Assembly (NCBI GenBank): GCA_001938485.1
Contig: MQRK01217301.1
Span: 55,462-105,709 of the forward strand
Length of the DNA stretch: 50,248 nt
DNA from: Girardia tigrina
Lineage: Eukaryota
Reading direction: 5' to 3'
Shown: piece by piece, positions 4,054 through 49,950 of the stretch
Layout: every line of letters starts with the position of its first letter
Position numbering within the stretch: position 1 is the first letter of the stretch
Notes under the pieces: generated by a model
Database searches by the model: none
What the model saw: only the letters and a program-made list of their open reading frames with translations
What the model was told of the DNA's origin: nothing
Program-made: the position numbers and the translations under genes

Positions 4054-4059
4054 CTGTTT

Positions 4060-4700
4060 CCGAATTGTCCGAAAGAAGGGAGCATCTGGGTCCATAGAGA
4101 TGCCTTCGGACTCCAGGATACAGAAAACGCATTCGATTTCTGATTTAAAATATCGACTTTGTTTTCTTTCACACAACACAGTGAGACCGTATCGTTCAAA
4201 ACCATTAAAAACGACTCTTTCTCATTTGGATGCCACCGCAAACCGACGAACTGGCTCTCGGTATTCGGTTTATATTCACAAAATTTCGATTCTCCTCTCT
4301 CCAGCAGCGATCTCTCGACATGTAACAACTCGACAGTCGCCAATCAACCATCATCGGTCACCAAGGCGACCAGCAGAATCGATCCACCGCAACTGAACTC
4401 GATCCAGGTAACACTCAAAAGGAATTTGATCGAGAAAATCGGATCAACACTCACGAGCCCGTCCCTCAAGTCGACCGATTCAACACTCGCTCTCTCGTAC
4501 GATGAGACACTGCAGAAATCCACATCGTTGCCGGCGATCGACGCCACTAATCCCGCCCGGCAATCGATTGCATTATATCGGATGCTTTTCGTGCATTTAG
4601 TCGATGACGGTTTAAATTGATGAAGCGTTTGAAAAATAACGTTTATCGAATTCGATTTGTCGTTAAATCTTTCGAATCTTTCACAGAATACTTTAACCAT
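4060..4700 (-). pseudogene. NUP214/Nup159-like N-terminal beta-propeller fragment with an in-frame TGA
   Basis: ORFs 4344..4850 and 4035..4343 share a frame and are separated by a single TGA (4344-4346). From ATG 4700: AIDCRAGLV...WIEFSCGGSILLVA...GLRWHPNEKESFLMVLNDTVSLCCVKENKVDILNQKSNAFSVSWSPK. This is colinear with NUP214 motifs as recalled (AVSNKYGLV, LALSCD, MKWNP, SVCWSPKGKQ). Confidence 0.65.
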
Positions 4701-5048
4701 TTTTGTATCGATTTTCGAATTGATTTTCGATTTAAAGTTTTTTAAATATCTTATGTTGTACTTTAAATTGCAAATTATACTCGAATAATTATTTATCATG
4801 AACATCCAAAATATCAATTTTCCACCTTGGTGGGAGAAACACATTTCCAAATACTAACTCAACATACAAAATTCAACAAACCAATTTCAACATACCAAAT
4901 TTAAAATATTCCTCACAAAAATAAATATTGAAAAATTCATTTAATTAATAATTTAAAAAAAATATTGAAAATATCTTTTGAAAAATTTTAGAAGTAAAAA
5001 AAATTTGTTTAACATTTACTTAAATTACATATTTAGTAGATCAATCAA

Positions 5049-7415
5049 ATGGACATAAAGCGCACCAAACCAACATGGGTCATTCCAATTAACGATACAC
5101 AGATCCCCGACATCAAGTTGTACAACAGCCTCACCAATCGCAAGGAAATATTCAAGCCGGTAGTTGGAAACCACATCGAGTGGTACAGCTGCGGCCCGAC
5201 CGTCTACGACTCGTCTCACATAGGACACGCCCGCACATACATCTCCATCGACATCATTCGGCGTGTCTTAAAAAACTACTTCAAATTTGATGTGCATTTC
5301 GTGATGAATATCACGGACATCGACGACAAGATCATCAAGCAAGCCCGACAGAAACTCCTCTTCGATCAATATCTTTATAAGCACAATACCTCCTTGACTT
5401 CCGATAGGGCGACACTGACAGCCGATGTCAATCTCTCTAGACAATTCATTAAAACAAAACTTGATCGAGAAAAGAATAATGACAAAAGAGCGATGTATAT
5501 AAGTCAGATGAAACGGATCGATGGGTTTTTGGAAGCCGAGAAAAATGGGGGAAAGATCATGGATAGACTGGATGAGATCCGGGATCCGTTGTCGGACTGG
5601 CTCGATTGGGAGAGAGGAAAGGACGTGACGGACAACTCGATATTTGAGGATTTGCCGAGAATGTACGAGCGAGAGTTTCTCGAGGACATGAAGAACTTGA
5701 ATGTGCTCCCGGCTGATCGATTGATGCGTGTTAGCGAGAATATGAAACAGATTATCGATTTTATAGAGAAAATCATCAAAAATGGATACGCGTACGAAGC
5801 GGATGGATCGGTCTATTTCGATACCGATAAGTTTGATAAGAGTGATAAATTCTTTTACGCGAAATTGTGTCCGATGGCGTTTGCAGGAGAAAGTTTCATG
5901 GCGTTGTTGAAAGAAGGCGAGGGCGTTTTGACAGATCAAGAGACTGAAGAAGGTCAGCCTGTTGACTCTGATAAGAGGAGCGAGGCGGACTTTGCGTTGT
6001 GGAAGAAGTCGAAGGCCGGGGAACCGAGTTGGGATAGTCCGTGGGGCAAGGGTCGACCCGGGTGGCACATCGAGTGCTCGGCGATGGCTGCCGACACTTG
6101 TGGAGATCGATTGGATATTCACACCGGTGGTGTTGACTTGAAGTTTCCGCATCATGATAACGAGATCGCGCAATCGGAGGCGGCATTAGATACACATCAA
6201 TGGGTAAACTATTTCTTGCACACGGGCCATCTCACCATTTACGGTGTCAAGTTGAATAAAAGTCTCAGGAATTTTATTTCTATCCGGGATACTTTGGAAA
6301 ATTATTCAGCACGTCAATTGCGTCTTTTGTTTCTGTTGCAATCTTGGAAAGATACACTCGATTATAGTGATGAAACCATGACTGAGGCTCTTGGATATGA
6401 GAAGTTGGTAATTGACTTCTTTTACACTATTTCCCACACGGTCCAGTATCACAGTCTTAACGATAACCGAGCATCGGTAGAAGATATCGTTTTGAAGAAT
6501 TTCTTTGAGAGTTCTCGTGACCAGGTCCATCAGGCACTTTCTGACTCAATAGATACACGAGAGGTCATGTTCGCTCTGAAGAATCTAATCATTGCAACTA
6601 TCAATTATCGCAAAGAAATCGGCATTAAAAAATCAAACCCAAATCAGTTAAAATCAATCATGAATTACGTTTACGACATATTACTCATGTTCGGCGTAGC
6701 AGATGATTGTACAAATCAATGCGGATTGATCGCATACTCTTATCAAGAGCTTGGTGCTATAATAACTGGAGCAATCAAAGCATCGAAAGAATTTATTGAG
6801 AGTATTGAAAACTTAAATGAAAGTGGTGAAAAGTTCATCCCTGAAATAATCAATAATTTCCTCAAACAGTGTCGTCTAGAATTTAATATCGACGTAAGAT
6901 CATCACCTGTATTTCAGCTGTGCTCTCGGGGGACAATCGATAAATTTTTGATGAATCTTGCTAATCTTCGACAATCGATAAGAGCCGAGAGCCTCAAAAA
7001 CAAGTGGATTGTGTTCCTAAAAGAATGTGATCGCCTCAAGGACGTACAGCTATCAGAGATTGGTGTGAGACTACAGGACTCAGAAGAGAACATACCGATT
7101 GTAGGACTATTACCGATATTGACTCAAGATAAGAAAATAAAAGATAAAAAAAAGAAAGGAAATACGGTACCAGAGAATAAAGAGACTTCAGAACCTGTGA
7201 AGAAATTAAATCATCATGTCGATCCAAAGGAAATGTTCAAGGTTGGACCATACCAGGGACTCTTCTCAACCTTTGATGAGACTGGGTTGCCAGTTCTCGA
7301 CGTTGCCGGAGCGGAGATACCAAAAAATAAACTGAACCAAATGAAGAAGCACCAGCTACAACAACAGCAATCTTTTGACATTTACTTCAAAGATCTGAAT
7401 GAATATTTAATTTAA
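5049..7415 (+). CDS. CARS1: Cysteinyl-tRNA synthetase, eukaryotic cytoplasmic type; intronless divergent paralog (788 aa)
   Basis: Intact ORF with [71 protein letters not shown] (in place of KMSKS), anticodon domain CDRLKD..GVRLQD and eukaryotic C-terminal FDETGLP. AATAAA at 7452-7457. Confidence 0.97.
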
Positions 7416-7514
7416 CTTTTATGCTAATTTGCAATTTTATTTATTTTTTTGAATAAAATATGTGTTTATTTTATTTTTTGCCTAATTTCTGTTAACGATA
7501 TTCTTATATTATTA

Positions 7515-10050
7515 TCCATACAAGTCTTTTATGGTATTGAGACCAAATTGATTGTGAAATTGTTCAAAATCGCGTGCAGTTATATTAAAAGGATGACGAA
7601 CGAGGTGAACTGGGATGGACAAATCTCTGACAATTTCGTGTCCATGATCGTACAAAAGCGAATTCTTATGGAAGGTAATCCAGTGGGGGTGTATGGAAGG
7701 CTCCATCAAATGGAGTCGCAAAGGTATTGTGTAATGCAAGTGGTATTGCCAGTGGTGTTTGTTTAGAAGTGGACGGTCGTATCGTATAACATGGGTCATG
7801 GTTAAGGAAGGTCAACGACAGGGCTCATATCAAACTGGCCGAATTGGATGCAGTGATTCATGGAATAAATTTGGCGATTTCGTAGAAGTTGAAGACCATA
7901 GAAGTGTTAACAGACTCTTCAACGGTGTACAGTCATTAATTTCAGGGGATAAACCTATCCATATCAATGACTTTGATGAAGTACTGGCAAGGCGCAGGTT
8001 GGCAATGATCGAAGATGTGATGATGGAAAATGACTTGGTGGTAACCGTTGATCAGGTAAAGTCTGGGGAAAACAAAGCAGACGCACTGACTCGAGTGCCA
8101 CGGTCATGGTTAGTTAAGGCTGTTGCGTTGGTCGCCATAGATGAACGGAGAATTTTCACTATTTTGGAATAGACAAAACGTTGTATCTTGCACGTCGTAT
8201 TATCCTGACATGGTGGTTCATCAAGACGTCGTAAGGAAGATGGTGGAGTCGAGCAATAGATGCTGGTCTATCGATCCTGCTCTAATGTAATGGAATAAAG
8301 GAGAATTGGAAGTCGCAGAAAATTGGGATTGTGTCGCGTGTTACGTAACATACTATAGTGATGGAAAGTATCTTACTTTAGAAAACTGGGGACCGAGTCG
8401 TTTCGCGCTGTGGAGAAGAATACCGCCTGAAACTGATGACAGTATCGCGGAACAACATGATAAGATATTTCGAGAGCATGAACCGCCCAGACCATTGTTG
8501 TTAGACAATGGTGCATTTTTCAGAAAACAATTGATCGAAAAATTATATGTATCAAAGTAGAAGGTGGAGCTGATTATAGACCAGCCGGGAACGGCATAGT
8601 CGAGAGGAACCACAGGACGATCAATCGGATGGCTGCAGGGAGCGGCCGAGGCGTATTGGATATGGTATATTGGTACAACCTGGCGCCAATGAGTGGAAAG
8701 AACTCCGAAGTGACGCCTAGTATTTCAATATTTAAATATAAATGGATGATTCCTGTCTTGCAACCTAAACAAGTTAATTTTAATAATATTGGAAAATTTT
8801 CAGCTGGGGAACAAGTATACGATAAAATTAATATTCATTAAAGATATAAATAATACTTATTAACAACATCAATATGAGGTTTACAACATTTATTATTACC
8901 ACAAGCGCACTCACTATTTGACATCTCTCTTGATTAATATATTTCTGAGTTCAAACTAATTATTTTCAATAAATGAAAATATATTAATAAAAATTATTAA
9001 TTATAAAGAATCTAATTGGTTGAAATTAAATCTAAACATTTTTTTTAAAAAAAAGAACATATTAAATTAATATATTAAAATTTTAAATTACATTAAAAAA
9101 TAAATAATACATTCAATAATTATTTAAAATCTTTTTTACTTTAAAATTAAAATAAATTATTTATAATTAGTAAGAATCAAAGAAAATATCGATCATCCAT
9201 CTGTGTAGGAGAGGCACAATCCGAATCAACATACAACATGCACAATATCAACACACAATTCAAAACATTCCTCACATTACGGATAAAATAATAAGAGATT
9301 TGTGTGAAGAAAGTAAACAGATATAATAAAATTATAAATAAAAAGAATAAAAATCTAAAAAAAAGGTTATAAAAGGAAGAAGATTTTAAAAATCCAGGAA
9401 CACAAAAAATTATTTTATCTTTTAAAGTTCAGAAAGAAGATTTTAAAGGTTAAAGTGCATAATAACCACCTACAAAGATTTTGAAAAATTACATCATACG
9501 TGGTCGTGTATTAACAATACCGAATTCTTGATGACGCATATATTACTCACCAGCAGAGATAATTTATTTCAAGAATTCGATATAAATATTTGCGAGCAAT
9601 ATCATAGATCAGGCAAAATACTGATCACTGGGATCATCGAATGGAGAAAGAGAAAAAGAAAAAAGTTTAAAATTTAATTAAAGGTGCGGGAAATTTATAA
9701 TTATCCCCTAATATATAATTATATATTTTCAGTTAATATATTTTATATATATTTAAAATCACCTAGGAGTAAGCGAATTTCGTTTCTCCTTTTTACCCAA
9801 CTTATAAATTCTAATAAATAAGGTTAAGTCAATTTCAAAATCTGTGTAAATATTTTGATCTTCAATAAATATTTTATTAAAAGAACTTCTTGATTTTTTT
9901 GTTTTAACTTAAATATCACCTCGATACCCAACAAGAAGATCGAAGCGATCGTGCCGTAGACCTGCATGGTAGAGTGACTATTCCATATGATCTAGAGATC
10001 AGGGGGAGATGTGTTAAATTAATGAATATTTATTAATTTATTTAAATTAA
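7515..10050 (+). mobile_element. Decayed Gypsy LTR retrotransposon 3' half (RNase H, integrase, PPT, start of 3' LTR), interrupted ~8830-9900
   Basis: RNase H-like ASGIASGVCLEVDG..SWLRKVNDRAHIKLAELDAVIHGINLA..VLTDSSTV and ENKADALTRVP. Integrase-like GPSRFALWRRI..LLDNGAFFR..RPAGNGIVERNHRTI. Pol tail PTRRSKRSCRRPAW*SDY (~9927-9985), then polypurine tract AGGGGGAGA (10001-10009) and TG at 10010. Confidence 0.85.
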
Positions 10051-10164
10051 TTTGTTTAAATCGTCAGTTGTCCTTGAAATATAAAATTTTGAAATTGCAA
10101 CTTATTCTTTCTGATTTATTTTCCAGAACAGATAATTTGTTTAAAATTTTATAATTGTTTATTG

Positions 10165-10530
10165 AAGTATGTGTTACCTTCATCGATCTATAAAGGCTTT
10201 TGAAGGTGTCCCTAGTGAAGTTTTGCGGACCAGTCTGAAAAGATATGGTTTAATCGACAAACTTCTTTATTATTTTCACAATCCGACGGTAGTTGAATAT
10301 GGTTCCTGGGTAGACTTTGAGATAACCGGAGACCAGGTACCGTGTTGGGTGCTGCTGGCTTGGGGTTTGAGCGGAATAGGTACAGAGAGGCTCTTGGAAA
10401 CGGAATTACTGTCAATGTTGGGTGGTGTTCACATCGGTGTCGGCGGAGCAAATCCAACTTTTGAAGCGAATCGGGTCAATAAGACCGCCGAAAAGCTGGC
10501 CTTGATGATAAAATAAACAAAGCAAATGAC
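10165..10530 (+). mobile_element. Non-LTR (RTE-like) reverse transcriptase fragment
   Basis: VTFIDL / KAFEGVPSEVLRTSLKRYGLIDKL (FIDLxKAFDxV motif split by a frameshift) and NRVNKTAEKLALMIK*TKQM (GLxINxxKTKxM-like). Confidence 0.7.
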
Positions 10531-10589
10531 GAGATCAGTAATAAATCAGTCAGAATAAGGGCCGAAAGTGGTAAAAACTAGGGTACCTT

Positions 10590-10845
10590 CCACGCCGTCA
10601 CGCACAGTAGATCAAGATTTTACAGTCGAGTTTGACGGGACATCTTGGTCAAATACCAGGTACCACCGGTACACAATAGCTTGGCAGAATTCACATCAAT
10701 ATTTTAAGCTGATGTAAATGTAGAGCTACAGGATTGGAAGATGATGGGGTTCCTATGCCCACAGCTGTCGACACTATCACTCAAGAAGCTAAAGAAAACA
10801 TCTTACCTATTCTCGACTACAAGGAAATCAACGATTCGATTTATA
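10590..10845 (+). mobile_element. Gypsy RT N-terminal fragment, probably the same family as the 7515-10050 element
   Basis: DQDFTVEFDGTSW ... ELQDWKMMGFL ... ILPILDYKEIN (RPVLDYRELN-like). Confidence 0.6.
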
Positions 10846-10849
10846 GCCC

Positions 10850-13800
10850 CTCCGCGGGAGTCTAGTGTGCGCGGAGAAACGGAGAATTCATAGCCGCGTT
10901 TGAAGTAAGTTGCCAATCGTGAATGTGAGGCGTGTATAACTACAAACCAGAGTCAATTGGTATTTGTGGCCGCATCAGGTGGTGTAGCTTTAAGACTGGT
11001 CAGGGTATTTAACGCAGCTTTGATTTGGCTTGAGTCTCAAATTTTAGGCGTTCAGAAAATTCGAAATTCAAAACTCTCGAATCGGCTTCCTCTGCCGCTA
11101 TGTACTTCTTCAGATGGTCCAAAAAGTGTAAATTGCGTTTTCAAACACCGGATAGTTTCAGTCGTCGTAACCATTCTCAGCAATAAATGTATAGGGGAAT
11201 CGAGACCACGCATCCAGTACCATAAAGATGCATTTGTGTCCATTCAAATCAACTTTTGGGCCCATGAAATCGATTGACCGGAATTTCTATAATCTCCGCA
11301 AGGGAATATTGTGGCCGTTCTTCAGCATCTCAAACCTTGGCTTCATTTTCTTGCATAACGAATAGTTAAAGCTGCATTGTCTGAAGCCTCCTTTGACATC
11401 TGAAATATCTAAATTTCTTGTTTTGATGAACATTTTGATGTGCATCAATCCTTGGTGGCTCATACTTTCATAGATGGTTTAAATGAGATTTTTTGGTCTT
11501 CAGTAATAATGAACACTCTACTAAGAGCATTGGTAACATCATTAGATTTTCCCGGAGGGTATTTTAGTTAGAAATTATATTAAGACAGATCAATTCACCA
11601 GAACAATATAAGCTTGTCCTAAACGTTTCCGGTCAATAATGAAAATACAATTTTTTTCAAATTTTTTGGCATTATTTATTTGATATTGATATTGATATAT
11701 ATATATATATATATATATATCGATTTATTTATAGCATTATATGGACTACGAGATTACAAAGCTTTAAATCAGTGTGTTGCTGCGTCACTATTCGAAAAAT
11801 ATCTTTGCGTTCTACGCATTTTCCTGGATTTTCTGTCTAAAATGAAAGCTACTCCTTTGTTCCATAATTCATAGCATTTCCAAGAAAAATTGGCGAAACG
11901 GGTTCACATCTGAAATAATTTCGAATGCCTCTAACTCTCCTCAAGTCTATTTCTTTTCAACGTCATGTAGTCTGTACAAAAGAAATAGGGTGTTCAGTTT
12001 GCAATAAACTTTCTCCGATACATGCAGACGAGGTATCTATCTCGAGGATCAGTGGGAAATCGTTATCCAACGGTACCACTAAGGAAGTATTTTTAATTGA
12101 TCTCTTCAGTGATGAGATAGCTACAACACATTCCTCGGTGAGTAAAACTTTTCGATTCGTTTTAGCAACATAAAGAAACCAATGATAATGACAAAGTCTT
12201 TGGTCCATTTTAAATAGTAAATACAGAGATCATTAAAGCTTTCAAGCTCTTAGCTTGTTTTTGGGATAGGAACATTCATTAAAGGAGATAATCATGAATC
12301 ATCGGGTTCCATTTTTCATTCTTGAAAGTGTGGCATGGGAGCAATAATTTTGTCTTAGAAAAGCAACATTTTTCATTGTTGAATGTCAGGTTTAATACCT
12401 GAGCTCTTTTGAAAAATGCTTCCAATATGCACTGTTCTTCCTTATTCTTTCAAAAACTACTATTTTATCAAAGTAGTGAACCATCCCATTCAAACCACAA
12501 AGAACATGATTAATGAAGTGACAGAAGGCTGACGCACCGTTTGTAATCATAATAGGTAGGCGGGTGGATTGCCAGAGATCTATAAGTGTTTGCTTTTTGT
12601 CAATGAGAGGCACTTAGAAGTAAGCAGACTTCAGATCGAATGTGCTGAATATTTTATTTTCATAAAATTATTCCAGAGTCCCCAGAATTAACGGAATAAT
12701 GTTTTCGTCTAACTCAGTGAAATGGTTAATTCTGAAAGCATAATTCCCAACCATGTGCAGTTTACCACCTGGATTTTTCATTACCACCACTTCAACTTGA
12801 ATTTCTCGATAATATCTTCTAGCGACAATTTTTTCAAGTCATCAGTAATAAATTGCCTTTCCAATTTCGTCCTGTACCGTGACGATGCCTGAATCGCCTT
12901 AGCCGTTTCTCGAATTTTATTGCTGTAAATAAGTTGAATATTCAGCAAATAAGCTTTACTTTATTTAAATTGGGATGGAGTTGTTGTAGAAGACACGGTC
13001 AAGATTGGTAGTTTTCCAGGGAATCACAAGTGAATCTTTTAAAATTTAGAAAGGCGGACATGCTCAGAATCGCCTTTTTGCACAGCTGGTCAACGTCATA
13101 AATCGGCGAATTTATAGCAGCCCCGTTCAAGAACTGAATATACATCGTAGTTCCTCGTACAGCATTCAAATTGCTTTCAATAGCGACTCAGATGTCAGCA
13201 GGGTTCTGTCAACCGTATTCTAAATTTAGCTGCAATTTCCTTCGATAGCGAAAACAAATCACTACCTATATCGATAAGCCATTTTAGCAGGCGTCCCTTT
13301 GTAGTGACCTCCATGTGTTTTTGTCTAGATTCTTGTCCATCTCTCCGCCAAATCGTTCCCACAACCAAAGTATTACATGTTTTCCATTGTTGCTAAAGTG
13401 TCCGACTTTGTGATAGTTAAAATGTTGCTGACCATTAGCGGGGCAATCCACTCTTTGGTGATTTTGCGTCGATCTATACCAGTCACACTTCCTTTGTCGT
13501 CCTTTTTCATTGGTCCTTGCTCTCAATAGGTGCCATGTTTAATGAGTTTGTGGGTTGATTGTACAGTTGAAGTTTGAATGTTATTTGTGTAGCTTCTTCC
13601 TAATCCAAGGTGAGGCAATTTTCTTGCCTGTATTGCTTGGCGAATTCCAGGCACACAGCCTTTCTAACTTCATCCTCTTTGAGACTCAAAAAGAAAGCAT
13701 CACGAAGAGCTTCATCTGCATAATCGATATGGAATTCATAATATTGGCAAGTTTTCCGTAATTGGCTAACAAAGCTATTGATGGATTGATCTGTTTCTTA

Positions 13801-13990
13801 CTTGCTAGTATGTAGAGTCAATTGTTCTCGTAATATATATTTGATCCTTCTATTTTGCGTCGCAAGAGGGCGATTGCGCTAGAGTCTTCTGTCATTCAAG
13901 CATTTTTATCCTCAGCTGATATTTTTAGCTAAGTGATTTCGTCATAAAATGATGCTAAATAGGAGCCAAATGCAGAGCAATAATAAATCC
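10850..13990 (-). mobile_element. Decayed Gypsy LTR retrotransposon (gag knuckle, protease, RT, RNase H, integrase)
   Basis: Minus-strand order: CDWYRSTQNHQRVDCPANGQQHFNYHKVGHF (gag knuckle, ~13400-13490), LIDIGSD (protease, ~13260-13280), FSTFDLKSAYF and ITNGASAF..HYFDKIVVF (RT, ~12450-12650), LEIDTSSACIG..HPISF (RNase H, ~11980-12045), VLDAWSRFP (integrase, ~11200). Confidence 0.88.
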
Positions 13991-14289
13991 AGAATGTGAT
14001 TTTCTTTGGTCTTTGAAATGCGCATGAATCTGTCAAACTGTTTAACAAATAGGCAAAGCCGTCTCGAGTAACTGCCATTAACGTTAATGTAGTAATTTTG
14101 ACCTTACGATCCTAGAAACATGTTTTAATTCGAGAAACAGTCAATCATATTTAATGCTCGGATCTACAAATACACATTCACAGTAAAAATAACATTGTAA
14201 CAAATTAGCAATAATTATAACAGTAGCAAAATCAGCAAAGTCAACATGGCATCGACCTCACAACCACCCCAACTAATGATACAAGGAAA

Positions 14290-14407
14290 CAAACAACAAT
14301 CAAATTCTAACATACAACAAATGAAAAACTATCAACGTGGTGCTCATGGATATTTTAACAAAAATATTTTGTTTTTGTTAAGTGGATCTAATTAAAATAA
14401 TATACAT
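14290..14407. repeat. 118-bp segment whose exact inverted copy is at 15581-15698
   Basis: Base-by-base reverse-complement identity by eye. Confidence 0.95.
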
Positions 14408-15133
14408 GAACACAATTTTGAATTTAATTAAAAAATACATTTGTTTTCTCGACCATGTGCGTTTTTTGATTTTAAATAATTAAACATCATGTGTCATTTC
14501 GGAGATCTCTGCGCTCCTACCTGCGCGTCATTGACTAACAAGCCGGTCGGACCGAATCCGGTGATGTTATGTGCGACCCGATGGCGCATTGCCAGTCGTC
14601 AGGAATTGGCCCGTCGAACCGACCGACGTCGGGTAAGCAGAGCAATTGTACGGCCCACCGTTGCGGATTTCCCTGATCAACGGAGAACCAAGGCACATCA
14701 ACCGCAAATTTCGGAGAGTATAATCAGACATCTAATAATGCACATCAAATAAAGTTGAAAGATATAAAAAATATTTCACTAAATACAAATGCTTACTATG
14801 GCTTGGTGTTTTTTATTATCCAGCATTCCAGGGGAATCTGCCAGTGTAATCAAATCACCCACTCAGAGTGTACCCCAAACGTCTGTCTCTTAACTGCTTT
14901 ACTTCCTGTAGGCCGTGAGCGACAGATTTGGCAAGATGCTTCACCTTACTTCACTTCTCGTGTAAATGATGACAGAATTCGTCAAGTATCCCAATCGACT
15001 TTTAAAGAATTGACATCTCGAGCATATCTTATACTGCATTATTGTTTATATAGAAAGATGACCATTCCGTCACAGTGTGATACGTCAAAATACTCTAATT
15101 GACATAACACACTGTGACGTAATGGTTATCTTT

Positions 15134-15384
15134 CTACACCATTTCAACTAGTACTTCAAAGAATAACAAGTGAATTTCAAATTTTAAAATTGTATTTCAA
15201 ATAATAACAATTGTATTTTAAATTCGTAAATTGTATTTCAAAAATTAACAATTGTATTTCAAAAATTAAAAATTGTATTCCAAAGAATAACAAAAATATT
15301 TCATAATTCTTTAATTTTAATTTAATTTTTACATTTTAAATTTTTCAGGTACTTTTTTATATTATTTTCAGTTTAATTTTAATC
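15134..15384. mobile_element. Truncated copy of the CTACACCATTTC-ended foldback/MITE family
   Basis: Same terminus, ttgtatttcaaa subrepeats and ~100 bp near-identical internal block as 17129-17340. Confidence 0.75.
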
Positions 15385-15398
15385 ATAATGGTGTATAT

Positions 15399-16324
15399 CA
15401 GGCATGTCAAACTCGCGGCCCGCAATGGATTTAAAATTTTAACAAATTTTTAAAATTTTCTAAAAAAATCTATTTTAAAAATCAAATTTATTGAAAAAAT
15501 AAAAACAAATCTTGGTGAAAATTTGATGTATATTATTTAATTTTGATTTGATTATTTGATTTTGATTATTTGATTTGAAAATGTATATTATTTTAATTAG
15601 ATCCACTTAACAAAAACAAAATATTTTTGTTAAAATATCCATGAGCACCACGTTGATAGTTTTTCATTTGTTGTATGTTAGAATTTGATTGTTGTTTGAA
15701 CCTTTGAAACTTTGAAAAGAGGTTTTCGGATTTTCAAAGTAGGAGTCTCATTTAAATATTTTTTGCTCTCCGATGTCTGTTGACATTGAAAATATTGATG
15801 AAAATTTGCAAATCGAGTTTATAGAACTACGATGCGACACTTTATTGAACCAAAAATATAAGAAAATTGGTATTCCAGAATTTTACGGATACTTCCGCAG
15901 GTCGTTTTCCAAGAATTTTACATTTTGTTATTCGCATATTATCCATGTTTGGTAGCACATATATTTGTGAACAGCTTTTTTTCACAAATGAAGATGAATA
16001 AAACTGCACAGCGAACTAGATTGACTGAAGAACATTTAGCATTAATTTTAAAAATTACATCAAGCCAATATTTTATACCAAATTTTGATGATTTGAAAAA
16101 TGAGAAGCGGTGCATTATATCCAGCAAAAAATAAATCATATTCTTTTTTATTAATAAATGTTTCTATAAAAAATTTTTTTGTTTTCTTTATGGTAAATTT
16201 ATATTCAATTAACACTCAAAGTTTGAATTTTTAATAAACCTTAGTAGATGTGGCCCGAAAAAAGATTTTGAAGACAATTTTCGATGAATTTGGCCCGTAT
16301 ACCGAAATGAGTTTGACAAGCCTG
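15399..16324 (+). mobile_element. Non-autonomous hAT (Buster-type) deletion derivative, 926 bp
   Basis: 16-bp TIRs CAGGCATGTCAAACTC / GAGTTTGACAAGCCTG (1 mismatch) and 8-bp TSD gtgtatat / gtgtacat. Retains the transposase C-terminal region (LQIEFIELRCD..., FSQMKMNKTAQRTRLTEEHL). Confidence 0.95.
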
Positions 16325-16358
16325 GTGTACATAAACAATAACTTTCTTATTAAATACA

Positions 16359-16396
16359 GAACTGATGAGGCCACAAAAGTGACGAAACATGTTTTC
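16359..16396 (+). ncRNA. Minimal type I hammerhead ribozyme motif (Penelope-type), degenerate
   Basis: gaa-CTGATGA-g-GCCAC-aaaa-GTGAC-GAAACATGT-t-ttc, followed by AATAAA. Palindromic stem III (ACATGT), one stem II mismatch, GUU at the cleavage triplet. Confidence 0.6.
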
Positions 16397-17128
16397 GAAT
16401 AAAAATTTAAAATTAAAATTATGTTTAATTACTAAATTACCATTTGATTTAAAGAAATTAAATTTATATAAAGTATTTATGTATTTTATTTACCTTTTTA
16501 CTTAAATCTAAATATTTTGCTTTTTATTTTATTCAACTGCTACTGCTTATATTCATGTCTGAAATTCATTTCTTACGTTAAAACATAAAGACAAAGAATA
16601 TTAAGAATATTTATTATTACACTAGAAAAATAAAACTAATAAACATTCCAAAATATATTTTAACTGGCATATCGTTCTCCAGTTAGCGATCTCGTCATAT
16701 TCCCCAGTATACGTATAATATATTATAATTACTGTAATCTCCCTCAGTAACCTCACTAATTATTAGATTTCCTAGAGTTCTTTCAACATCAAAATCAAAA
16801 CAAAGCAAATTTCTTACACATGGTTTAATCTCTGAAAAACATTTTCTATTTCATGAAGCATGCAGAGATAGGGGTATATAAGTCCATTATAACCCAGAAA
16901 TTACTCTCTCAAGATCACTTCACTTATAGATTCTTGCATCGTCAATAAGGTTCATTGATCCTTGTGTTCTTTCGAATTCGAAATATATTGATGAATTCAG
17001 TTCGAAATACATATTAAAAATATTTACAATGAAGAAAAAATTAATGAAAACAACTAAGTATTTTCAAAAATTGAATTTATATTTAAAATCAGTTCAAAAC
17101 TAAAAAAATCATTTCCAAATGAAAAATT

Positions 17129-17686
17129 CTACATCGTTTCAAGTTGTATTTCAAAAAATAACAATTGAATTTCAAATTTGAAAATAACAAACTACAAATA
17201 ATAGCAATTGTAGTTCAAAAAATAAAAGTTGTATTTCAAATAATAACAAAAATATTTCATAATTCTTTAATTTTAATTTAATTTTTACATTTTAAATTTC
17301 TCGGGTACTTTTTGATATTATTTTCAGTTTAATTTTAATCTTAAGTTTTAGAAAAGAATCTACAAGGTTGTGATATGTGACCCATGCTGTCATCTCTTAA
17401 AAAAGGTCCTATTCACCAATGGAGAAGCAACTTGCCCAAACTGTTGCTCACTGCTTACAGAAAGTGAAGTAATTAAGAGGCAATTTTTGTTTGACTTACC
17501 AAATTTTGTCTTTTTTGTGTTTGTATTATGAAGAGATGACATGATTTTATTTGTCAGCGATTAGAATTGGAGTTGTAGGAAGCTATTTATTTTTATTTTT
17601 TGAAATACAATTTACGAATTTGAAATACAATTTTAAAATTTGAAATTCAATCGTTATTCTTTGAAATATATGCTGAAATGGTGTAG
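17129..17686. mobile_element. Foldback/MITE with long subrepeated TIRs, ~360 bp upstream of the canonical CysRS start
   Basis: Left end CTACATCGTTTCAA..., right end ...TGAAATGGTGTAG. The right arm is a close reverse complement of 15134-15245. Flanks aatt/agtt may be a 4-bp TSD. Confidence 0.75.
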
Positions 17687-18045
17687 AGTTAAAATATTCG
17701 TGCTTACATATTTAAAAATTATTTTAATTATTATAATTTTTAATTAAATAATTATATTAATGGCTTTGAAATGGTATATAAAGCATATTAAATACAATAT
17801 CATTTTTAAAAAAATTAATAAAATCGACAATATTGCTAAATCGATTAATTTTCCGCAAAATATAACTCTAAAAATTAATTTCCTTACGAAAATTAATTGA
17901 AAATTGATTTTGCAAAATATCGATTTAAATATTATCGGTACAAAAAAATATTTTTTGTTTAAATATTGGCGAAATAAAATTTATTTCATCATTTTAGAAC
18001 AACAAATTAATTCGACTGATCCGACGATTTCAAGCAACCTATCAA

Positions 18046-19184
18046 ATGGACAAGAAGCGCACCAAACCGAAATGGGTCATCCCGACCAACGAGGCACAGA
18101 TCCCCAGCATCAAGTTGTACAACAGCCTCACCAACCGCAAGGAGACGTTCAAGCCGGCCGTCGGCAACCACGTCGAGTGGTACAGCTGCGGCCCGACCGT
18201 CTACGACTCGTCTCACATGGGACACGCCCGCACCTACATCTCCATCGACATCCTTCGTCGCGTCTTGAAGGACTACTTCAAATTCGATGTGCACTTCGTC
18301 ATGAATATCACGGACATCGACGACAAGATCATCAAGCGCGCCCGGCAGAGACACCTCTTCGACCAGTATCTCCATGACCACAAGACCTCCTCGACTGCCG
18401 CTCTGACGGCCGATATCAACCACTCGAGACAATTCATTAAAACAAAACACGACCGAGAGACCGACGGCGACAAGAAGGCGATGTACTTGAGAGAGATGAA
18501 ACGGATCGATGAGGTGTTGGCTGTCGGCAAGAATGGGGGCGAGATCATTGGGCGACTGGACGAGATCCGGGATCCGTTGTCGGACTGGCTCGACTGGGAG
18601 AGAGGGAAGCACGTGACGGACAACTCGATATTCGAGGATTTGCCGAGAATGTACGAGCGAGAGTTTCTCGAGGACATGAAGAACTTGAATGTGCTCCCGG
18701 CCGATCGATTGACGCGTGTCAGCGAGTACATCAAACAGATCGTCGATTTTATATTGAAAATCATCAAAAATGGATTCGCGTACGAAGCGGACGGATCGGT
18801 CTATTTCGATACCGACAAGTTCGACAAGAGCGATAAATTCTTTTACGCGAAATTGTGTCCGACGGCGTTTGCGGGGGAAAGTTTCATGGCGTTGTTGAAA
18901 GAAGGCGAGGGCGTCTTGACGCAACAAGAGACGGCTGAAAATCGACCCGGGGACTCGGGGAAGAGGAGCGAGGCGGACTTTGCGTTGTGGAAGAGGTCGA
19001 AGGCCGGGGAACCGAGTTGGGATAGTCCGTGGGGCAAGGGTCGACCCGGGTGGCACATCGAGTGCTCGGCGATGGCTGCTGACACTTGTGGAGATCGATT
19101 GGATATTCACACCGGTGGCGTTGACTTGAAGTTCCCGCATCATGACAACGAGATCGCGCAATCGGAGGCGGCATTAAACACGCA
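18046..19184 (+). CDS. CARS1: Cysteinyl-tRNA synthetase (canonical, 3 exons, 778 aa), exon 1
   Basis: [30 protein letters not shown]. Donor CA|GTAAGT at 19185 (phase 2). Exons of 1139+347+851 = 2337 nt join in frame and are colinear with the intronless copy. Confidence 0.97.
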
Positions 19185-19758
19185 GTAAGTATTGATTAAT
19201 ATTGGTGTAGTTGATTATCAGTCCGCACTGGTTTAAAGGTATAAATCAATGGAAACAATTTAACTGTGACTGCGTTTTGGACATTCGTTATGTATAATAT
19301 CTTAATTTAATCTGTTTTTTTGAGGAATTTGTTTTTAATTTAATTTTTTAAATATTTATTAATTTATTTTTCTAAATTTTTAAAATTGATTTATTATAAA
19401 ACTAATACATTTCAATAAAAAATTGATTGAAAATATAGCTTTCTTGTCTGGAACAAATCTTGCGATTGATTTTTCGACCACTTTCAGTCATCCAATTGAG
19501 CGGAATTTTTTTATACAGGCTTGCTTCCGATGACAATACAATATTTTAAAACATTTACGGCTCTACATAAACCGCATATGCTATAATTTAACTTTATGAA
19601 AAAAATCAATAATATTAATTAATACGTACAAAAAAAATATTTTGAAATAAAATTTGCTTTTATTAAAATAAAACTTTGTTATTTTGGTTTTATTATCATT
19701 TCTGTTATTCGAAATCAATCGAAATATTTTAATTCCTAAATGATAACTAAAAATAGTA

Positions 19759-20104
19759 AAATAATATTATTAATAAAAAATTTTTTTATAAAAACAACCA
19801 CGTTTTTCAAGCATTACCAATGCACTAAAAAGAGGAAAATAATTATTTTTCTAGACATGTGAGAAATTTTATACCTAACCAAAAACGTGGGGCATAGAAA
19901 TGATCGATTGTTACTGAAAAGCAGTAAAGAGGAAATAGTAGTTACTAATAGCAGTAATTAAGAAATCCGCCCCACGTTTTTGGTTAGGTATAAAATTTCA
20001 CACATGTCTAGACAAAAAAATTATTTTCCTCTTTTTAGTGCATTGGTAATGCTTGAAAAACGTGGTTGTTTTTATAAAACAATTTTTTATTAATAATATT
20101 ATTT
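19759..20104. repeat. Long near-perfect inverted repeat (~135-bp arms, 75-bp spacer) in intron 1
   Basis: 19759-19893 is the reverse complement of 19969-20104 with few mismatches. Confidence 0.92.
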
Positions 20105-20214
20105 ACATTGTTATTTATATTAAAATATCATTTAACTAAATAGAATAAAAAACAAAAATATTATCATATATTAATTGAATATTAAAAAAATATTAAAAAT
20201 TAAAATAAAATAAT

Positions 20215-20284
20215 TGGGTATAGTTCCGTACGGCCCCAGTAAAAATAAAATTATTTTTCTGGTGTCCATACGGAACTATACCCA
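20215..20284. repeat. 70-bp hairpin/mini-MITE in intron 1
   Basis: TGGGTATAGTTCCGTA ... TACGGAACTATACCCA with pairing that continues almost to the centre. Confidence 0.88.
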
Positions 20285-20975
20285 TTTAAAATTATTAACA
20301 AAAATAACAGAAACAAATTCATATTTTTTTGACAATCTTATTTGTACAATATCTGAAAAATAATTGAAAATTGAATGAAAAAAATTTTTATAAATCCATT
20401 AAAATATTATTATTTTAAAAATAATGAAGAAATTTATAATAAATCCGAGACATTTAAACAATTTAACTGACAATAATTTAAATTGTTACCATTGATTTTT
20501 ACATTTAAACCCAATGGGGACCCAAAATATTTGAAGTTAATTAAATTCTTTAAATAATAATTGGAATTCTAAATAATTAATTTACTAAGAGACGCAGAAA
20601 ATATACTGATTATAAAGACGAATTAAAATAATTAAAAATAATTTTCCACATTCAAACGTAAATATAGAGAAATATTTGTGCTTTAAAGAATCAATAATTT
20701 TTAATTATGTAAAATTATATAACTCATTTTAGAGTAACAAATTAAGTTGCAATTTTTTGGGGAATTAATTTTTAATTAATAAATTAAATTTATCTTAAAA
20801 TATAAACGGAATTCCAAAAAAATTTAAATGTTATAAAACTAAAAATATACATTTTGGAATAATAATATTAAATTATTATTTATTTTAAATAATAATTGAA
20901 ATTCTATATAATTAAAAAAGTATTAAAATAATAAAAAGTAATTATTATTATCTAAATTGTATTAGTCTTATGTAA

Positions 20976-21320
20976 TTAACAATAATTTTCCGTTTGTTAA
21001 AAGTAAATCAATAATTTTTAAAATATAAAAAAATTATATAAAATCTTTAGAGTCACTTAAAATAAATTTAATAGTATAAGTTATATGATATAATTTTTTT
21101 TCAAAATTTTATTAATAAATTATTTTGAATTTTAATTGAAATTCGTATTTAACAATTATTTTCCGTTTGTTAAAAGTAAATCAATAATTATTAAAATATG
21201 CAATAAAACATTTTTAGAGTCAAATAAATAATTTAATACTATAAAATATATGGTAAAAAAAGTTTTATTTCAAATTTTAATTAATAAAATATTTTTTTAG
21301 TTTTTATTGAAATTCTAAAT
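20976..21320. repeat. Degenerate ~175-bp tandem duplication in intron 1
   Basis: ttaacaaWWattttccgtttgttaaaagtaaatcaataatt...tttagagtca recurs at ~20976 and ~21149. Confidence 0.75.
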
Positions 21321-21444
21321 AATTATTTTTCGAAATTAAAATTATAATCAATGGAAATAATTTATGTACTTAATATTTTTTAACAATGATATTTTTCTTT
21401 TTCAATTTATTACTAAAATCGCACTGAAATGATCATTTTTTTAG

Positions 21445-21791
21445 TCAATGGGTGAACTATTTCTTACATACGGGCCATCTCACCATTTCCGGCTGCAAGA
21501 TGAGTAAGAGTCTCAAGAACTTTATTTCTATTCGCGAAGCACTACAGAATCATTCTGCACGTCAATTGCGTCTTTTGTTCTTGTTACAATCGTGGAAAGA
21601 TACACTCGATTATAGTGATGAAACCATGACTGAAGCTCTTGGATATGAGAAGCTGGTGATCGACTTCTTCTACACTATTTCCCACACGGTCCGGTATCAC
21701 AGCCACAACGATAACCTAAAACTGGTAGAAGATGTCGATTTGAAGAACTCCTTTGACAGTACTCGCGACAAGGTCCACCAGGCTCTTTCCG
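21445..21791 (+). CDS. CARS1: Cysteinyl-tRNA synthetase (canonical), exon 2 containing KMSKS
   Basis: Acceptor ttttttAG|T CAA TGG at 21444; HTGHLTISGCKMSKSLKNF; donor G|GTAATT at 21792 (phase 1). Confidence 0.96.
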
Positions 21792-22024
21792 GTAATTATT
21801 ATTATTTTTTGATCCCATATATCGACCTTACAACCTTTAATGTAAAATTTATATAAATAATTATTTATAACATTTCAATACGAATTATAATAATTTAAAA
21901 TTGTATTAGCTCTAATCGACATTTGCAAACACATAATTATTAAAATTATAACGGATGAAATTATTCAACAGACTTTATTGAGATGGAATGTAAATTGTCA
22001 CAATTGTAACACATTTGGTACGGC

Positions 22025-23085
22025 TGTTATATTACCCGCCACATATTATGTAATCTGCGAAGATTTATTTATTCTTTAAGATTAATTATTTATTTAATTA
22101 CTTTATTTAATAAATTAATAATAATTAATTAAATTTATTTTAATTAATTATTTAATTCATTGAATAAATAAATTTAAATTAAATAAATTTTAATTAATTA
22201 TTTATTTATTTTTATTAATTTAATTTAATAATTAATTTATTCTTTAAGATTAATTATTAATTTAATTTATTTTAATTAATTAAATTCATTGAATAAATAA
22301 ATTAGTGAATCAATAAATGAATAAAAAGTAAATAAAGTAAAGAATAAATTAATTATTGAATGAATAAATTATTTAATTTATTATTTATTTTATTAAAAAA
22401 ATTATTTAACAAATAAATTATTATTTTAATTATTTATTTTTTTATTAATTTAATTTAATTATTCTTTAAGATTAGTTATTTATTTAATTACTTTATTTAA
22501 TAAATTAATAATAATTAATAAAAATTAATTATTTTTAATGTATAAAAACATTTCAAATACATTCCAGAATCGTGCATATTGATAAATTGTTGTCTGTTGA
22601 TTAAAATTTTTCTTTAAAATCAGAACAAAACATTTAAATTGATTCCAAATAGAATTTCATCAACAGCACAATATTCCACATTTGCATGTAGAAGTATGCA
22701 TAATAATGAGAGAAAATAACTAAATCATTTCAAACATTTCCCTCATTAACATACTATCACCTTAAAGAGATACTTTCAATAAAATAATTCAATACTAAAA
22801 GTGGTCTCTCAAAACACTACTAATTTAATTAATTAATTTAATTCATTGAATCAATAAATCAATTATTACACAAATGAATAAAAAGTAAATAAAGTAAAGA
22901 ATAAATTAATTATTGAATGAATTAATTATTTAATTTATTATTTATTTTTTTAAAAAAAATAATTAATTATTTCATTTAATTATTAATTAACAATTTTATT
23001 CATCCATTCCACCAGTTATTCCTCTAATTCGTAACGAAATTATGTAATCTATACAGTTTACATAATATATGGGGGCAGTATAACA
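22025..23085. mobile_element. TIR-bounded element with AT-rich internal repeats in intron 2
   Basis: tgttatattacccgccacatattatgtaatctg versus reverse complement of the right end, tgttatactgcccccatatattatgtaaactg. Confidence 0.65.
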
Positions 23086-23093
23086 TTCTTTCC

Positions 23094-23775
23094 ATTTTCA
23101 TTATTACTACACATTTTTTGAAACTCAACATTTTCAATAACTATATTTTTAGTTAGATTAATGAGTTATATCAATGAAAAAATATCAATTTAATATGAAA
23201 AAAATCATTTTTTATGAAACAATTTTTTTAATTCGACACATTAAAAAATAATTAAAATTAAAAAGTAAAAGTTAAATCGACCATAAGACGACACAAATTT
23301 TTTAATTCGACACAGTAAAAGTTAATTTTTAACATTTTATTCATTGCAAATTAGCTGGCCAACGCAAGTATTTCAGTTTTTTATCATTCGATGCATTCAA
23401 ATTGTATTCTTGCACATCCATTGCAATAGCCTCACTCAATGATACATATTTTTTCTTTAACCTCAGGGCGACCTGACAGAGCATTTTCTTGATTTTTTTC
23501 ATGAAAATTGTTTTATTTCATATTAAATTGATATTTTAATATTAAATACATATTTTTCATATTAAATACATATTTTTTTATTAAAAATTGATTTTTGTCA
23601 TATTAATATGGTATTTTTATATATAATAATATATAAAAATTAGTTCATATTAAATTGATTTTTTTATATTAAAAACATTTTTTTCATATTAAATACATGA
23701 AAACTCATTAGTCTAACTAAAAATCCAGTTATTGAAAATGTCGAGTATCAAAAAATGTGTAGTAATAATGAAAAT
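23094..23775. mobile_element. Mutator-like remnant with 74-bp inverted repeats in intron 2
   Basis: 23094-23167 and 23702-23775 are inverted repeats. Internal minus-strand KYVSLSEAIAMDVQEYNLNASNDKKLKYLRWPANLQ* resembles a MULE transposase C-terminus; a related copy lies at ~42835-42950. Confidence 0.6.
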
Positions 23776-24170
23776 ATTTCATTTTAGCTATTGGTCAAAT
23801 TAAAAAAAAAGTTTTGAATTAAAAAAAACTAATCGAAATTTGAAAATGTCGAAATAATATATTTGTCCCATTAAAAGAATGTGTCGAATTAAAAAAAAAT
23901 TGTCGAATTGTCATGGAACCGCTGAAACTTTACCTATTCAGTATCTAAACTAACAAATTACATTACTTGTCTACCTCAATACATATTAATACTTCAAAAA
24001 TTAACCAAGTGCAACCATTTTATTAATCAAAAAGATACCGAGACTTTGTGCTTGAAGTAGCCTATTTATTCCAATCACCTATTCAATATTCTCCTTTTAA
24101 TCGGGTTACATTGCTGACACTTCGTGTTACTCTTCCCGTTTTAAGTTGTTTTAAAAAATCCAGTTTATTA

Positions 24171-24376
24171 CCGTATTTTTCCGTGTATAGGATCTTATTT
24201 TTGGGTGTGCATTTTTGGAAATAAATTAAACAAAGTTCCTTAGTTCATTCCAAAAAATAAATTGTAATCTTTTGTGTTGGAGAAATGTTTCAAATATTTA
24301 CTAATTTTTATAAATTAGCGTTAAATGTTCTTTAAATTTTGACAAAAAAGGGGGTATTATACACGGAAAAATACGG
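24171..24376. mobile_element. pogo/Tc2-type MITE (206 bp)
   Basis: Perfect 19-bp TIR CCGTATTTTTCCGTGTATA / TATACACGGAAAAATACGG, flanked by TA on both sides. Confidence 0.92.
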
Positions 24377-24599
24377 TATATTTTAATTTTTAAATATTAT
24401 TGTATTATAATAGAAAATGATTTAAGCTATAAATAATAATGAATTAAAATATAAAGACATTTTCAGCATATTTCGATGTGTCTAATTTATAACTAATTAA
24501 AATATCGAAGAAAGTAAATGTTAATTTTTGAGCAGCGCTCTCCAATATCCATTGCAAATGAACCAGCAAATATTTATTCATTTTCTGACATTTATAACT

Positions 24600-25050
24600 G
24601 TTAACAGTTTTCAGTCTTCAGACGGGTGTTTAACGAGCAAATATCTGGAGTGTTTGCATTTGCTGTATTTACATATACATTAAGGTAAAAGCAAATATTC
24701 TTAGATTCTATAAGTCGCCTCATTAACATCCTGCTTGTCTGATATATTCTTTTATGTATATTCTAATTGAAAATATAATGATTGAAATACTCTCTTCTGT
24801 TCTTGATGTACATTGATACACTTCCGGTGTTTCGTTTTGCCGATTCCGTCCTTAGTTGATCATAGTGATTACAAATAATTAATGAAAGCATTTCACTTAT
24901 CAATACCGAATGTTGCTGAAGCGCATTCCGAGAGTTTTGTTGATTCGTGTTGGGGCTGGTTAGGTAAAGATGCGATGCAATTTTTCTGTTTACAAGGAAC
25001 AATAGTCCGCCTGCATTTTCAGACTATTTACGTTTGCGAATTACTGCGGA
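24600..25050 (-). mobile_element. Penelope-like GIY-YIG C-terminal remnant in intron 2
   Basis: NHYIFN*NIHKRIYQTSRMLMRRLIESKNI resembles H.FDW....IL.......RLI.ES..I; a hammerhead-like motif lies nearby on the same strand. Confidence 0.45.
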
Positions 25051-25265
25051 TTGCTTTTCCTACATGTTTTATAAATGATAACATGATGATAAAAAGCGCA
25101 CAGTAAATGTAAATAAATGTCGTATACATAGTTTTATTTATAAAAAACAATCAAATGCGAAATGAAACATTATACCAAAAAGATATAATATTGTAATTAT
25201 TCATATAAATATTTGAAAAATGACGACAGAGAATTTTTAAAAAACAAAATTTTCGTCAGAATATT

Positions 25266-25305
25266 TTTATTAATTTCGACGGATCAACCATCATCATCAG
25301 ACTGA
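25266..25305 (-). ncRNA. Minimal hammerhead ribozyme core, degenerate (stem I lost)
   Basis: Minus strand: CTGATGA-t-GATGG-ttgat-CCGTC-GAAATTAAT-A. Stem II has 5 bp, stem III is the palindrome ATTAAT, and AATAAA overlaps the end. Confidence 0.5.
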
Positions 25306-25520
25306 ATTAACGACTAAATATATTCGCGTTTATATATCAAAGCAATGTTTATGAAATCATTATGTAATTTAAATCATGAAAATATTTTCAATAAAGTTAC
25401 AGAGTATGGTTTTTGCACATTGATTTTATTAATTAAATAATATGTTATTCTAATCTATTTTATAACAGTTTTTAATAAAAATAAATAGATTCATCCATTA
25501 ATGATTATCCAAAATTCTAG

Positions 25521-26371
25521 ACTCCATCGACACCCGAGAGTCTATGTTTGCCTTGAGGAATCTGATTAGTGTAACCATCAATTATCATAAAAAATTCGGC
25601 ATTAAAAAATCAAACCCAAATCAGTTGAAATCAATCGCCAATTACGTTTACGATATGTTACACATGTTTGGGGCAGCGGATGATTGTGCAGATAAATGTG
25701 GATTGATCGCGTATACAGATCAAGAGCTTGGTTCTATACAAACTGGAGCAATCAAAGCGGCGAAAGCATTTATTGAAAGCATTGAAAAGATCAATGAAAG
25801 TGGAGCAGAGGTCATCCAAGGAATAATTAATAAGTTCATAGAAGATTGTCGACTAGGTTTTAATATCGATGTAAGAGCATCGCCTGTAATTAAGTCGTGC
25901 TCCCAGTCGACCCTTGATAAATTACTGGTAAATATTGCAAATCTGCGCCAATCCATAAGAGCCCATAGCATAAAAAACAAGTGGATTGGATTTCTTAAGG
26001 AATGTGATCGCCTCAGAGACTCACAGTTATCGGAGATCGGAGTGAGACTGCAAGACGCAGAAGAGGATGTGCCCATTGTCGGATTAATTCCACTCTGGGC
26101 CCAAGACAAAAAAGAAAAGAAGAAAGAGAATCCGGCTCCACAAAAGAAAGAAAATACGGTCTCACTTAAGAAGAAAATAGAACCAAGCGTTGACCCGAAA
26201 ATAATGTTCAAAGTGGGACCGTATCAGGGACTCTTCTCGGGTTTTGATGAGAATGGACTGCCGATTACTGATGCTGCTGGAGTCGAAATATCCAAAAATA
26301 AATTGAAACAATTAAAAAAGATTCAGCTCGAGCAGCAACAGGTATTCGATAAGTTCTCAGCTTCTAAATGA
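25521..26371 (+). CDS. CARS1: Cysteinyl-tRNA synthetase (canonical), exon 3: anticodon-binding domain and C-terminal extension
   Basis: Acceptor ttctAG|AC TCC ATC GAC at 25520; ECDRLRD..GVRLQD, FDENGLP; TGA at 26369-26371. Confidence 0.96.
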
Positions 26372-34449: not shown

Positions 34450-34792
34450 AATTAATTAATAATAATCAAAAATTAATTAATAAATAATCACAAATTAATT
34501 CATAAATAATCACAAATTAATTAATAAATAATCACAAATTAATTAATTAATAATCACTAATTAGTTAATAAATAATCACAAATTAATTAATTAATAATCA
34601 CAAATTAATTAATTAATAATCACAAATTAATTAATTAATAATCACTAATTAGTTAATAAATAATCACAAATTAATTAATAAATAATCACAAATTAATTAA
34701 TAAATAATCAAAAATTAATTAATAAATAATCACAAATTAATTCATAAATAATCACAAATTAATTCATAAATAATCGCAAATTAATTAATTAA
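34450..34792. repeat. Minisatellite, ~20-21 bp unit (aataatcacaaattaattaat[a]), about 16 copies
   Basis: Tandem units read directly. Confidence 0.93.
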
Positions 34793-49901: not shown

Positions 49902-49950
49902 NNNNNNNNNNNNNNNNNNNNNNNNNNNNNNNNNNNNNNNNNNNNNNNNN
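49902..49950. other. Assembly gap (49 N)
   Basis: N run. Confidence 1.

Follow-up and report, generated by a model that had tools for sequence, protein, structure and literature searches.

How does a gene without introns come to lie beside an intron-containing relative on the same strand? The question is raised by 50,248 nt of Girardia tigrina DNA (GenBank assembly GCA_001938485.1, contig MQRK01217301.1, positions 55,462 to 105,709 of the forward strand; this whole stretch is called the window), which contains two genes for cytosolic-type cysteinyl-tRNA synthetase (CysRS; CARS1). Copy A (5049..7415, + strand) is an intact, intronless gene encoding 788 amino acids (PF01406, E 1e-112), and RNA-like contigs match it with 0–2 differences. 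Copy B (+ strand) has three exons (18046..19184, 21445..21791 and 25521..26371). On balance we lean towards the view that A is a tandem duplicate of B from which the introns were removed in place by recombination with reverse-transcribed spliced mRNA. The proposed series of events would begin with a DNA-level tandem duplication of the CysRS gene, giving A and B. Reverse-transcribed spliced mRNA would then have recombined with A, removing both introns in place, and a later single recombination between A and B at about position 1850 of the coding sequence (CDS) would have generated a hybrid of the B 5' part and the A 3' part. The hybrid would also have ended up intronless, with flanks of both genes kept, before being copied and decaying around the genome.

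Structure and divergence of the two copies

The three exons of B encode a product of 778 amino acids. Intron 1 (19185..21444, + strand; 2260 nt, GTAAGT...TTTTAG) interrupts H383 in phase 2, and intron 2 (21792..25520, + strand; 3729 nt, GTAATT...TTCTAG) interrupts D499 in phase 1; both are GT-AG introns. An earlier reading of the window, made from the sequence only, had claimed that both introns are missing from A with codon-perfect junctions and that the copies lie about 10.6 kb apart on the same strand. Self-BLAST and exon alignment confirmed both statements. At the sites of intron 1 (6192..6203, + strand; junction 6196/6197) and intron 2 (6540..6548, + strand; junction 6543/6544) the coding sequence of A is continuous, with zero residues added or removed, and 10,631 nt separate the A stop codon from the B ATG. 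Three colinear same-strand matches were obtained: 5044–6196 with 18041–19184 (87.5% identity), 6197–6541 with 21445–21789 (85.2%) and 6539–7357 with 25515–26328 (75.3%). The single run of N in the window is at 49902–49950, and the stretch from 4 to 27 kb is free of gaps.

The A and B proteins are identical in 616 of 790 aligned columns. Nonsynonymous (dN) and synonymous (dS) divergence are 0.117 and 0.64 (ratio 0.18), with a dN/dS of 0.22 on the A branch and 0.18 on the B branch, and both copies are under purifying selection. Both contain the PF01406 catalytic domain, a eukaryote-type insertion and a C-terminal extension. In a quick tree, A, B and a third protein (P0001) clustered with Macrostomum (SH-aLRT 98; long branch), the branch of A being 0.21 long and that of B 0.059. 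In both genes the GC content of third codon positions declines towards the 3' end (0.76, 0.53 and 0.41 in B; 0.59, 0.44 and 0.38 in A) in a genome of 30% GC. A run of 33 identical silent codons (CDS 925–1039; p 0.027) hints at gene conversion between A and B.

An intronless hybrid of A and B dispersed in the genome

Searches of the same genome returned 18, 75 and 67 matches, many of which are intronless fragments. Nine hybrid copies were aligned; eight pass CDS position 1850 and one covers the 5' part only. All eight switch from B-like to A-like sequence at A CDS 1845–1852 (6893..6900, + strand), as located by a breakpoint scan. The switch is shared by 7/7 copies with long stretches on both sides (chi2 49–111), and the trees of both segments unite the hybrid copies in a single clade (support 85). 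Both intron junctions are precise in all hybrid copies recovered (4 at junction 1 and 8 at junction 2), and no copy keeping just one intron was seen among those fetched. The hybrid apparently represents a second precise loss of both introns in the same gene pair. Its longest representative (C123352-4, three contigs of identical sequence) has an open frame of 699 amino acids and a dN/dS of 0.13–0.21 on the 5' branch, and the hybrid was therefore once under selection; the other copies contain stops. P0001 has the same B5'/A3' make-up.

Upstream, the intronless hybrid retains B DNA to position −240 (17805..18045, + strand). Downstream, CDS position 2194 of A (7242) is joined directly to the downstream flank of A (9780..11061, + strand), of which up to 1.3 kb follows the join. 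Among 40 scored matches, this repeat-to-repeat composite occurred only beside CysRS copies. The 7242/9780 join was considered as a splice product and rejected: 8/8 other copies of the repeat have no AG at this point, so the join is a DNA rearrangement. The simplest reading of the hybrid is an unequal crossover in the A–B tandem and subsequent intron removal by cDNA, or else a duplicate of A converted by B cDNA. By either route cDNA recombined with a genomic copy.

It is usually difficult to distinguish retroposition from the loss of introns in place. A hybrid with the flanks of both parents and no introns is an unusually direct trace of recombination between cDNA and the genome, repeated in one gene, and because it provides a precedent we favor tandem duplication with cDNA recombination over local retroposition. 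The sequence-only reading had offered both routes. The available text of PMC3652778 describes a reverse transcription model that predicts that neighboring introns disappear together and that genes giving rise to processed copies lose more introns. The CysRS pair resembles such cases, as far as that text presents them, in the precise joint loss and in being a housekeeping gene with many intronless copies. It differs in that one member of a tandem pair is affected, that the loss apparently recurred in the hybrid, and that loss in place is something we infer. If this is correct, the pair is a natural replicate of intron loss mediated by reverse transcription, and it cautions that an intronless paralog need not be a retrocopy.

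Further observations concern the dispersed fragments. At 7234–7242, hybrid 5' pieces (L038–L040) end and other copies of the A 3' end (L032, L033, L037) begin at the same 9-bp word, as expected if an old insertion had duplicated its target site. In L037 (G000:C253549) and L045 (G000:C249683), short CysRS 3' fragments form tandem arrays next to a piece of B upstream DNA. A far older, decayed multi-copy CysRS 5' fragment (68% DNA identity) is present in L148–L150 (G000:C109577, C138605 and C138607).

Flanking DNA and local retroposition

It is possible, if on the whole unlikely, that A arose by local retroposition, i.e. that a cDNA of the B ancestor integrated some 10 kb upstream of the parental gene and persisted as a retrogene. 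The strong similarity between the copies extends from 5 nt before the ATG, where it ends at ATCAAATG, to near the stop codon; repeats flank A on either side; and the two copies differ in their 3' flanks, between which no match was detected (20/300 shuffles score as high). A resembles functional retrogenes in being intronless, intact, transcribed and under purifying selection. It differs from them in lying 10,631 nt from its parent rather than at an unlinked site, in having no visible tail or target-site duplication, and in a weak trace of shared upstream DNA. An insertion beside the parent would have had to occur in a genome of 1.43 Gb, and the hybrid family lost its introns with genomic flanks kept.

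The trace of upstream homology lies at about 4905..5012 (+ strand), which is weakly similar to DNA upstream of B (about 17847–17962; p 0.001–0.034 against AT-rich genomic windows). Local scores of A upstream DNA against that of B and of the hybrid were 51–52 and were reached by 0/300 shuffles; among background AT-rich genomic windows, 26/762, 7/758 and 1/755 scored as high. The match is located upstream of the point at which the B RNA contigs begin. The claim that 5' similarity stops five bases before the ATG thus holds for the strong match, with a weak one continuing further upstream. Retention of parental flanks is clear in the hybrid family, and in A there is a weak hint of it. As had also been noted from the sequence, no poly(A) tail was seen after A, and the best direct repeats around it are four scattered 8-mers. 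These absences are little informative, and a weak point against retroposition, because a dS of about 0.64 would erase flanks, tail and target-site duplication.

Transcripts and linkage of the two copies

We placed the contigs of four sequencing runs on the A region (5030–8900). Run X1 yielded A-type contigs with 0–2 differences from A. X1 contigs spanning both junctions showed 33, 45 and 91 differences, the exact counts for spliced B; they fit neither of two dispersed copies, for which 30, 56 and 82 (C, a hybrid copy) and 34, 53 and 78 (D) are expected. A decayed, high-copy retroelement remnant 3' of A (7571..8857, + strand; no Pfam match) served as a silent control. Its depth was 0–1.5 in X1 and reached thousands in X7, which is DNA-like; X1 thus behaves like RNA. 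The remnant contains what we take to be RNase H/integrase-like motifs. Both A and spliced B are transcribed, the RNA nature of X1 being judged from this control.

Runs X12 and X15, from two other organisms, contained A-type pieces 2.6–5.7% divergent from A as well as B-type pieces whose loose 5' and 3' ends are B-like. The duplication is therefore older than those lineages. A-type depth was below B-type depth in X12 and X15 and similar to it in X1; contig depths were not used for ranking expression. B-type 3' ends in X1, X12 and X15 exclude that A and B are themselves assembly chimeras or reciprocal recombinants, and the dispersed family is therefore the recombinant.

These data also bear on whether the adjacency of A and B is an artefact that brought together two unlinked paralogs or haplotypes. 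In favor of an artefact, the assembly is broken into 255,254 contigs, the interval between the genes is rich in repeats, and no long read was seen. Nevertheless, we consider such an error improbable: there is no N between A and B, each gene exactly matches its own transcripts, and other organisms contain both types. The hybrid lends indirect support to the linkage, as it joins B upstream to A downstream DNA in the way that an unequal crossover in an A–B tandem would.

Age and repeat content of the B introns

To what extent loss rather than gain explains the difference depends on the age of the introns. We examined short homologs of B exon 2 (120 listed of 289), which consist largely of genomic exons translated past their ends. 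An exon boundary between codons 377 and 378 marks the start of the match in 66 of the 120, and in 82 the match ends at 454–456; neither boundary is an intron in A or B. Position 498 is reached by eight, of which five break there, two read through and one turns to junk earlier. The five show Gly (a G/GT read-through) followed by unrelated residues, the pattern that B itself displays because the phase-1 GT donor splits D499. Five additional cluster members repeat the Gly break at 498, and D499 is present without exception in full-length proteins (118/118). Four of the five clusters with this break share 70–83% identity with proteins like those of bees, flies and beetles, and the fifth is 59% identical to a crustacean protein (a weak match). 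Intron 2 is probably ancient, its position and phase appearing common to insect-like CARS1 genes. An intron 2 older than the duplication would mean that A lost it, i.e. loss and not gain.

The position of intron 1 was found in 0/120 of the listed short homologs, and neither a break at 383 nor one at 499 was seen in 80 metagenome loci, which are mostly intron-poor or mRNA-derived. The site lies 17 nt downstream of the widely shared 377/378 intron. Comparison of intron positions among homologs, which the sequence-only reading had proposed as a check, thus points to loss for intron 2, shared with other animals, and gave no second instance of intron 1. Intron 1, taken by itself, may have been gained or have shifted late.

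The same reading had described the introns as full of mobile elements and had suggested element-driven gain of both. Young repeats indeed lie inside intron 1 (about 19438–20104) and intron 2 (about 22017–23890). However, among 40 scored candidates in each intron search, matches begin at least 226 nt inside the introns and none touches a splice site, as the ends of an introner-type element would; the best are 93–99% identical to genome-wide copies. No direct repeat was found at the splice sites of the B introns. An intronless ancestor from which B gained both introns, e.g. from transposons, is formally parsimonious with two gains, as A and all hybrid copies are without introns, and the intron 1 position was not seen elsewhere. 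We regard it as very improbable, given the match of intron 2 in position and phase to the five bee, fly, beetle and (weakly) crustacean clusters and the internal, young repeats. Least credible is that a tandem duplicate lost its introns by separate exact genomic deletions through end-joining repair, without RNA: genomic deletion and break-repair models exist (PMC3652778, in its accessible text), but four exact, scarless events would be needed, two each in A and the hybrid.

Several points weigh against loss in place from a tandem duplicate. The adjacency of A and B rests on one assembly contig. A occupies a 2.85-kb island between repeats, as an insertion would. The upstream match is weak and AT-rich, 26/762 background windows scoring as high against A, and at a dS of about 0.64 flanks, poly(A) and target-site duplication would be erased under either origin. 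The B region to −240 might lie in unprocessed RNA and have been copied by reverse transcriptase. The apparent conservation of intron 2 is read from protein fragments rather than from outgroup flatworm DNA; of the two introns, only this one appears to predate the duplication, and intron 1 could be a lineage-specific gain or shift in B.

Catalytic motifs

Copy A has the motif HIGH (5217..5228, + strand) at the site of HMGH in B and in 118/118 near homologs. We rejected the idea that this change (M58I) is damaging, since distant eukaryotes commonly have HIGH, HLGH or HVGH. The HIGH-type motif, CGPT, HIECS and HHDNE are present in both copies, M58I being the sole deviation among these conserved columns; the last three motifs we take to be zinc ligands. 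The KMSKS loop of A is altered to KLNKS (6240..6269, + strand; SGCKMSKSLK in B), in an X1 contig with 0 differences. KLNKS occurs in 0/267 homologs (2 unparsed), and both motif lysines are kept. At 244 highly conserved columns A deviates in 45 and B in 31. Changes in A affect 5/16 residues around KMSKS and 25/384 elsewhere in the core (Fisher p 0.004; window chosen post hoc); they fall in the KMSKS loop and beside KIIK, with the zinc ligands and the KIIK and KMSK lysines retained.

According to the available part of PMC5660078, the KIIK and KMSK lysines bind pyridoxal phosphate (PLP) for persulfide synthesis. Copy A may act in the cytosol only, with its ATP-binding loop retuned; alternatively, the higher rate of A may be due to relaxed selection alone. 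An AlphaFold model built from a single sequence had a pLDDT of 34 and could not be used. As judged from the accessible text on ThrRS-L (PMC9437257), A is similar in that duplication left an additional cytosolic-type synthetase, which was retained and has diverged in some features, and differs in that the changes are at the KMSKS loop and KIIK and that no N-terminal extension was gained. If the retuning is real, A would offer a natural, selected KMSKS variant for comparing charging with the persulfide synthase activity outlined in the available part of PMC5660078.

A candidate presequence of B and the search for a mitochondrial CysRS

Why might two cytosolic-type genes be kept? B carries a 16-codon open frame (17998..18045, + strand), a candidate presequence in frame with the ATG. 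These 48 nt begin directly after ATCATTTTAG, an acceptor-like sequence ending in TTTTAG that resembles the intron 1 acceptor; since the acceptor TAG is in frame, the extension has no genomic AUG. Its predicted peptide is free of acidic residues, with a net charge of +4 and a hydrophobic moment of 0.94, properties that 4/29,124 background open 48-mers share (criteria set post hoc). The 30 nt nearest the gene are kept in X12 and X15 with substitutions and no indel or stop. In both X1 and X15, B contigs extend 68 nt beyond the start of the alignment; 43 nt of these lead to the acceptor, and the other 25 nt may be leader or unspliced DNA. No candidate leader was found at the acceptor among 11 matches to the B 5' region. 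A has in-frame stops 10–15 nt before its ATG and no B-like extension.

Flatworm leaders end in an AUG able to initiate translation (PMC12582326, PMC3510090 and PMC7346339, as far as their accessible text goes). In 7/7 other copies of the B acceptor site TTG replaces TAG, which counts against initiation at a leader AUG; a near-cognate start is therefore possible.

Searches with PF01406 and TIGR00435 revealed no separate mitochondrial CysRS in this fragmented assembly (44/44 and 34/34 candidates scored). The weak matches are presumably LeuRS- and ArgRS-like, as judged by motif. The control, mitochondrial PheRS, was found exon by exon in the same genome. Independently, the LeuRS-like and ArgRS-like genes (L153–L156 and L161) lie on at least two contigs each and have long open frames.

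B may serve both cytosol and mitochondria by way of the presequence frame, with the AUG likely supplied by a spliced leader. The pair would then be kept because B serves both compartments and A the cytosol alone. Echinococcus TGR variants reportedly arise from trans-splicing. Dual targeting of Trypanosoma brucei IleRS by alternative trans-splicing offers a parallel to B, as described in the available text of PMC3273800, in that an optional N-terminal extension is tied to 5' processing; in yeast, by the accessible account in PMC7600831, one CysRS gene serves both compartments, as B would. B differs from these synthetases in that its extension would need the 3' AUG of a leader (in the sense of the accessible text of PMC12582326 and PMC3510090) or a near-cognate start, and in that animals ancestrally had, and normally keep, a separate mitochondrial CysRS (PMC4558845 and PMC5660078, in the portions available).

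The combined scenario is doubtful and is offered as a speculation: CARS2 would have been lost and replaced by leader-AUG B, and A would be a cytosol-only gene, stripped of its introns in place, whose KMSKS changes shift the balance of charging and persulfide synthesis, both introns having been lost twice. If true, an animal replaced its mitochondrial CysRS by a leader-initiated isoform of the cytosolic gene. We found no literature on this gene pair or on loss of CARS2 in flatworms in the sources searched, which did not cover subscription journals and supplements. The ingredients are each of a known kind; new are the repeated loss in one tandem pair and the possible replacement of CARS2.

Other features of the window

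About 320 nt upstream of A lies a high-copy repeat (4054..4725, − strand; at least 40 copies, about 91% identity) with a broken WD40-like gene fragment that contains an in-frame stop; the WD40 assignment is a lead only. The arrangement resembles capture of a gene fragment by a mobile element. Its frame, head-to-head with A, was considered as an ancestral neighbor indicative of synteny and rejected, as it lies in this repeat. Frames at 37647–39747 (+ strand) probably belong to a longin/DENN-type gene, the NPR2/folliculin/C9orf72-like matches (below 0.9) being a lead only. A tandem repeat with a period of about 66 bp (34450–34792) is related to the AT-rich repeats of B intron 2. Finally, the DNA between A and B contains an element (14290–15698) with perfect 118-bp terminal inverted repeats, which is probably a recent insertion.

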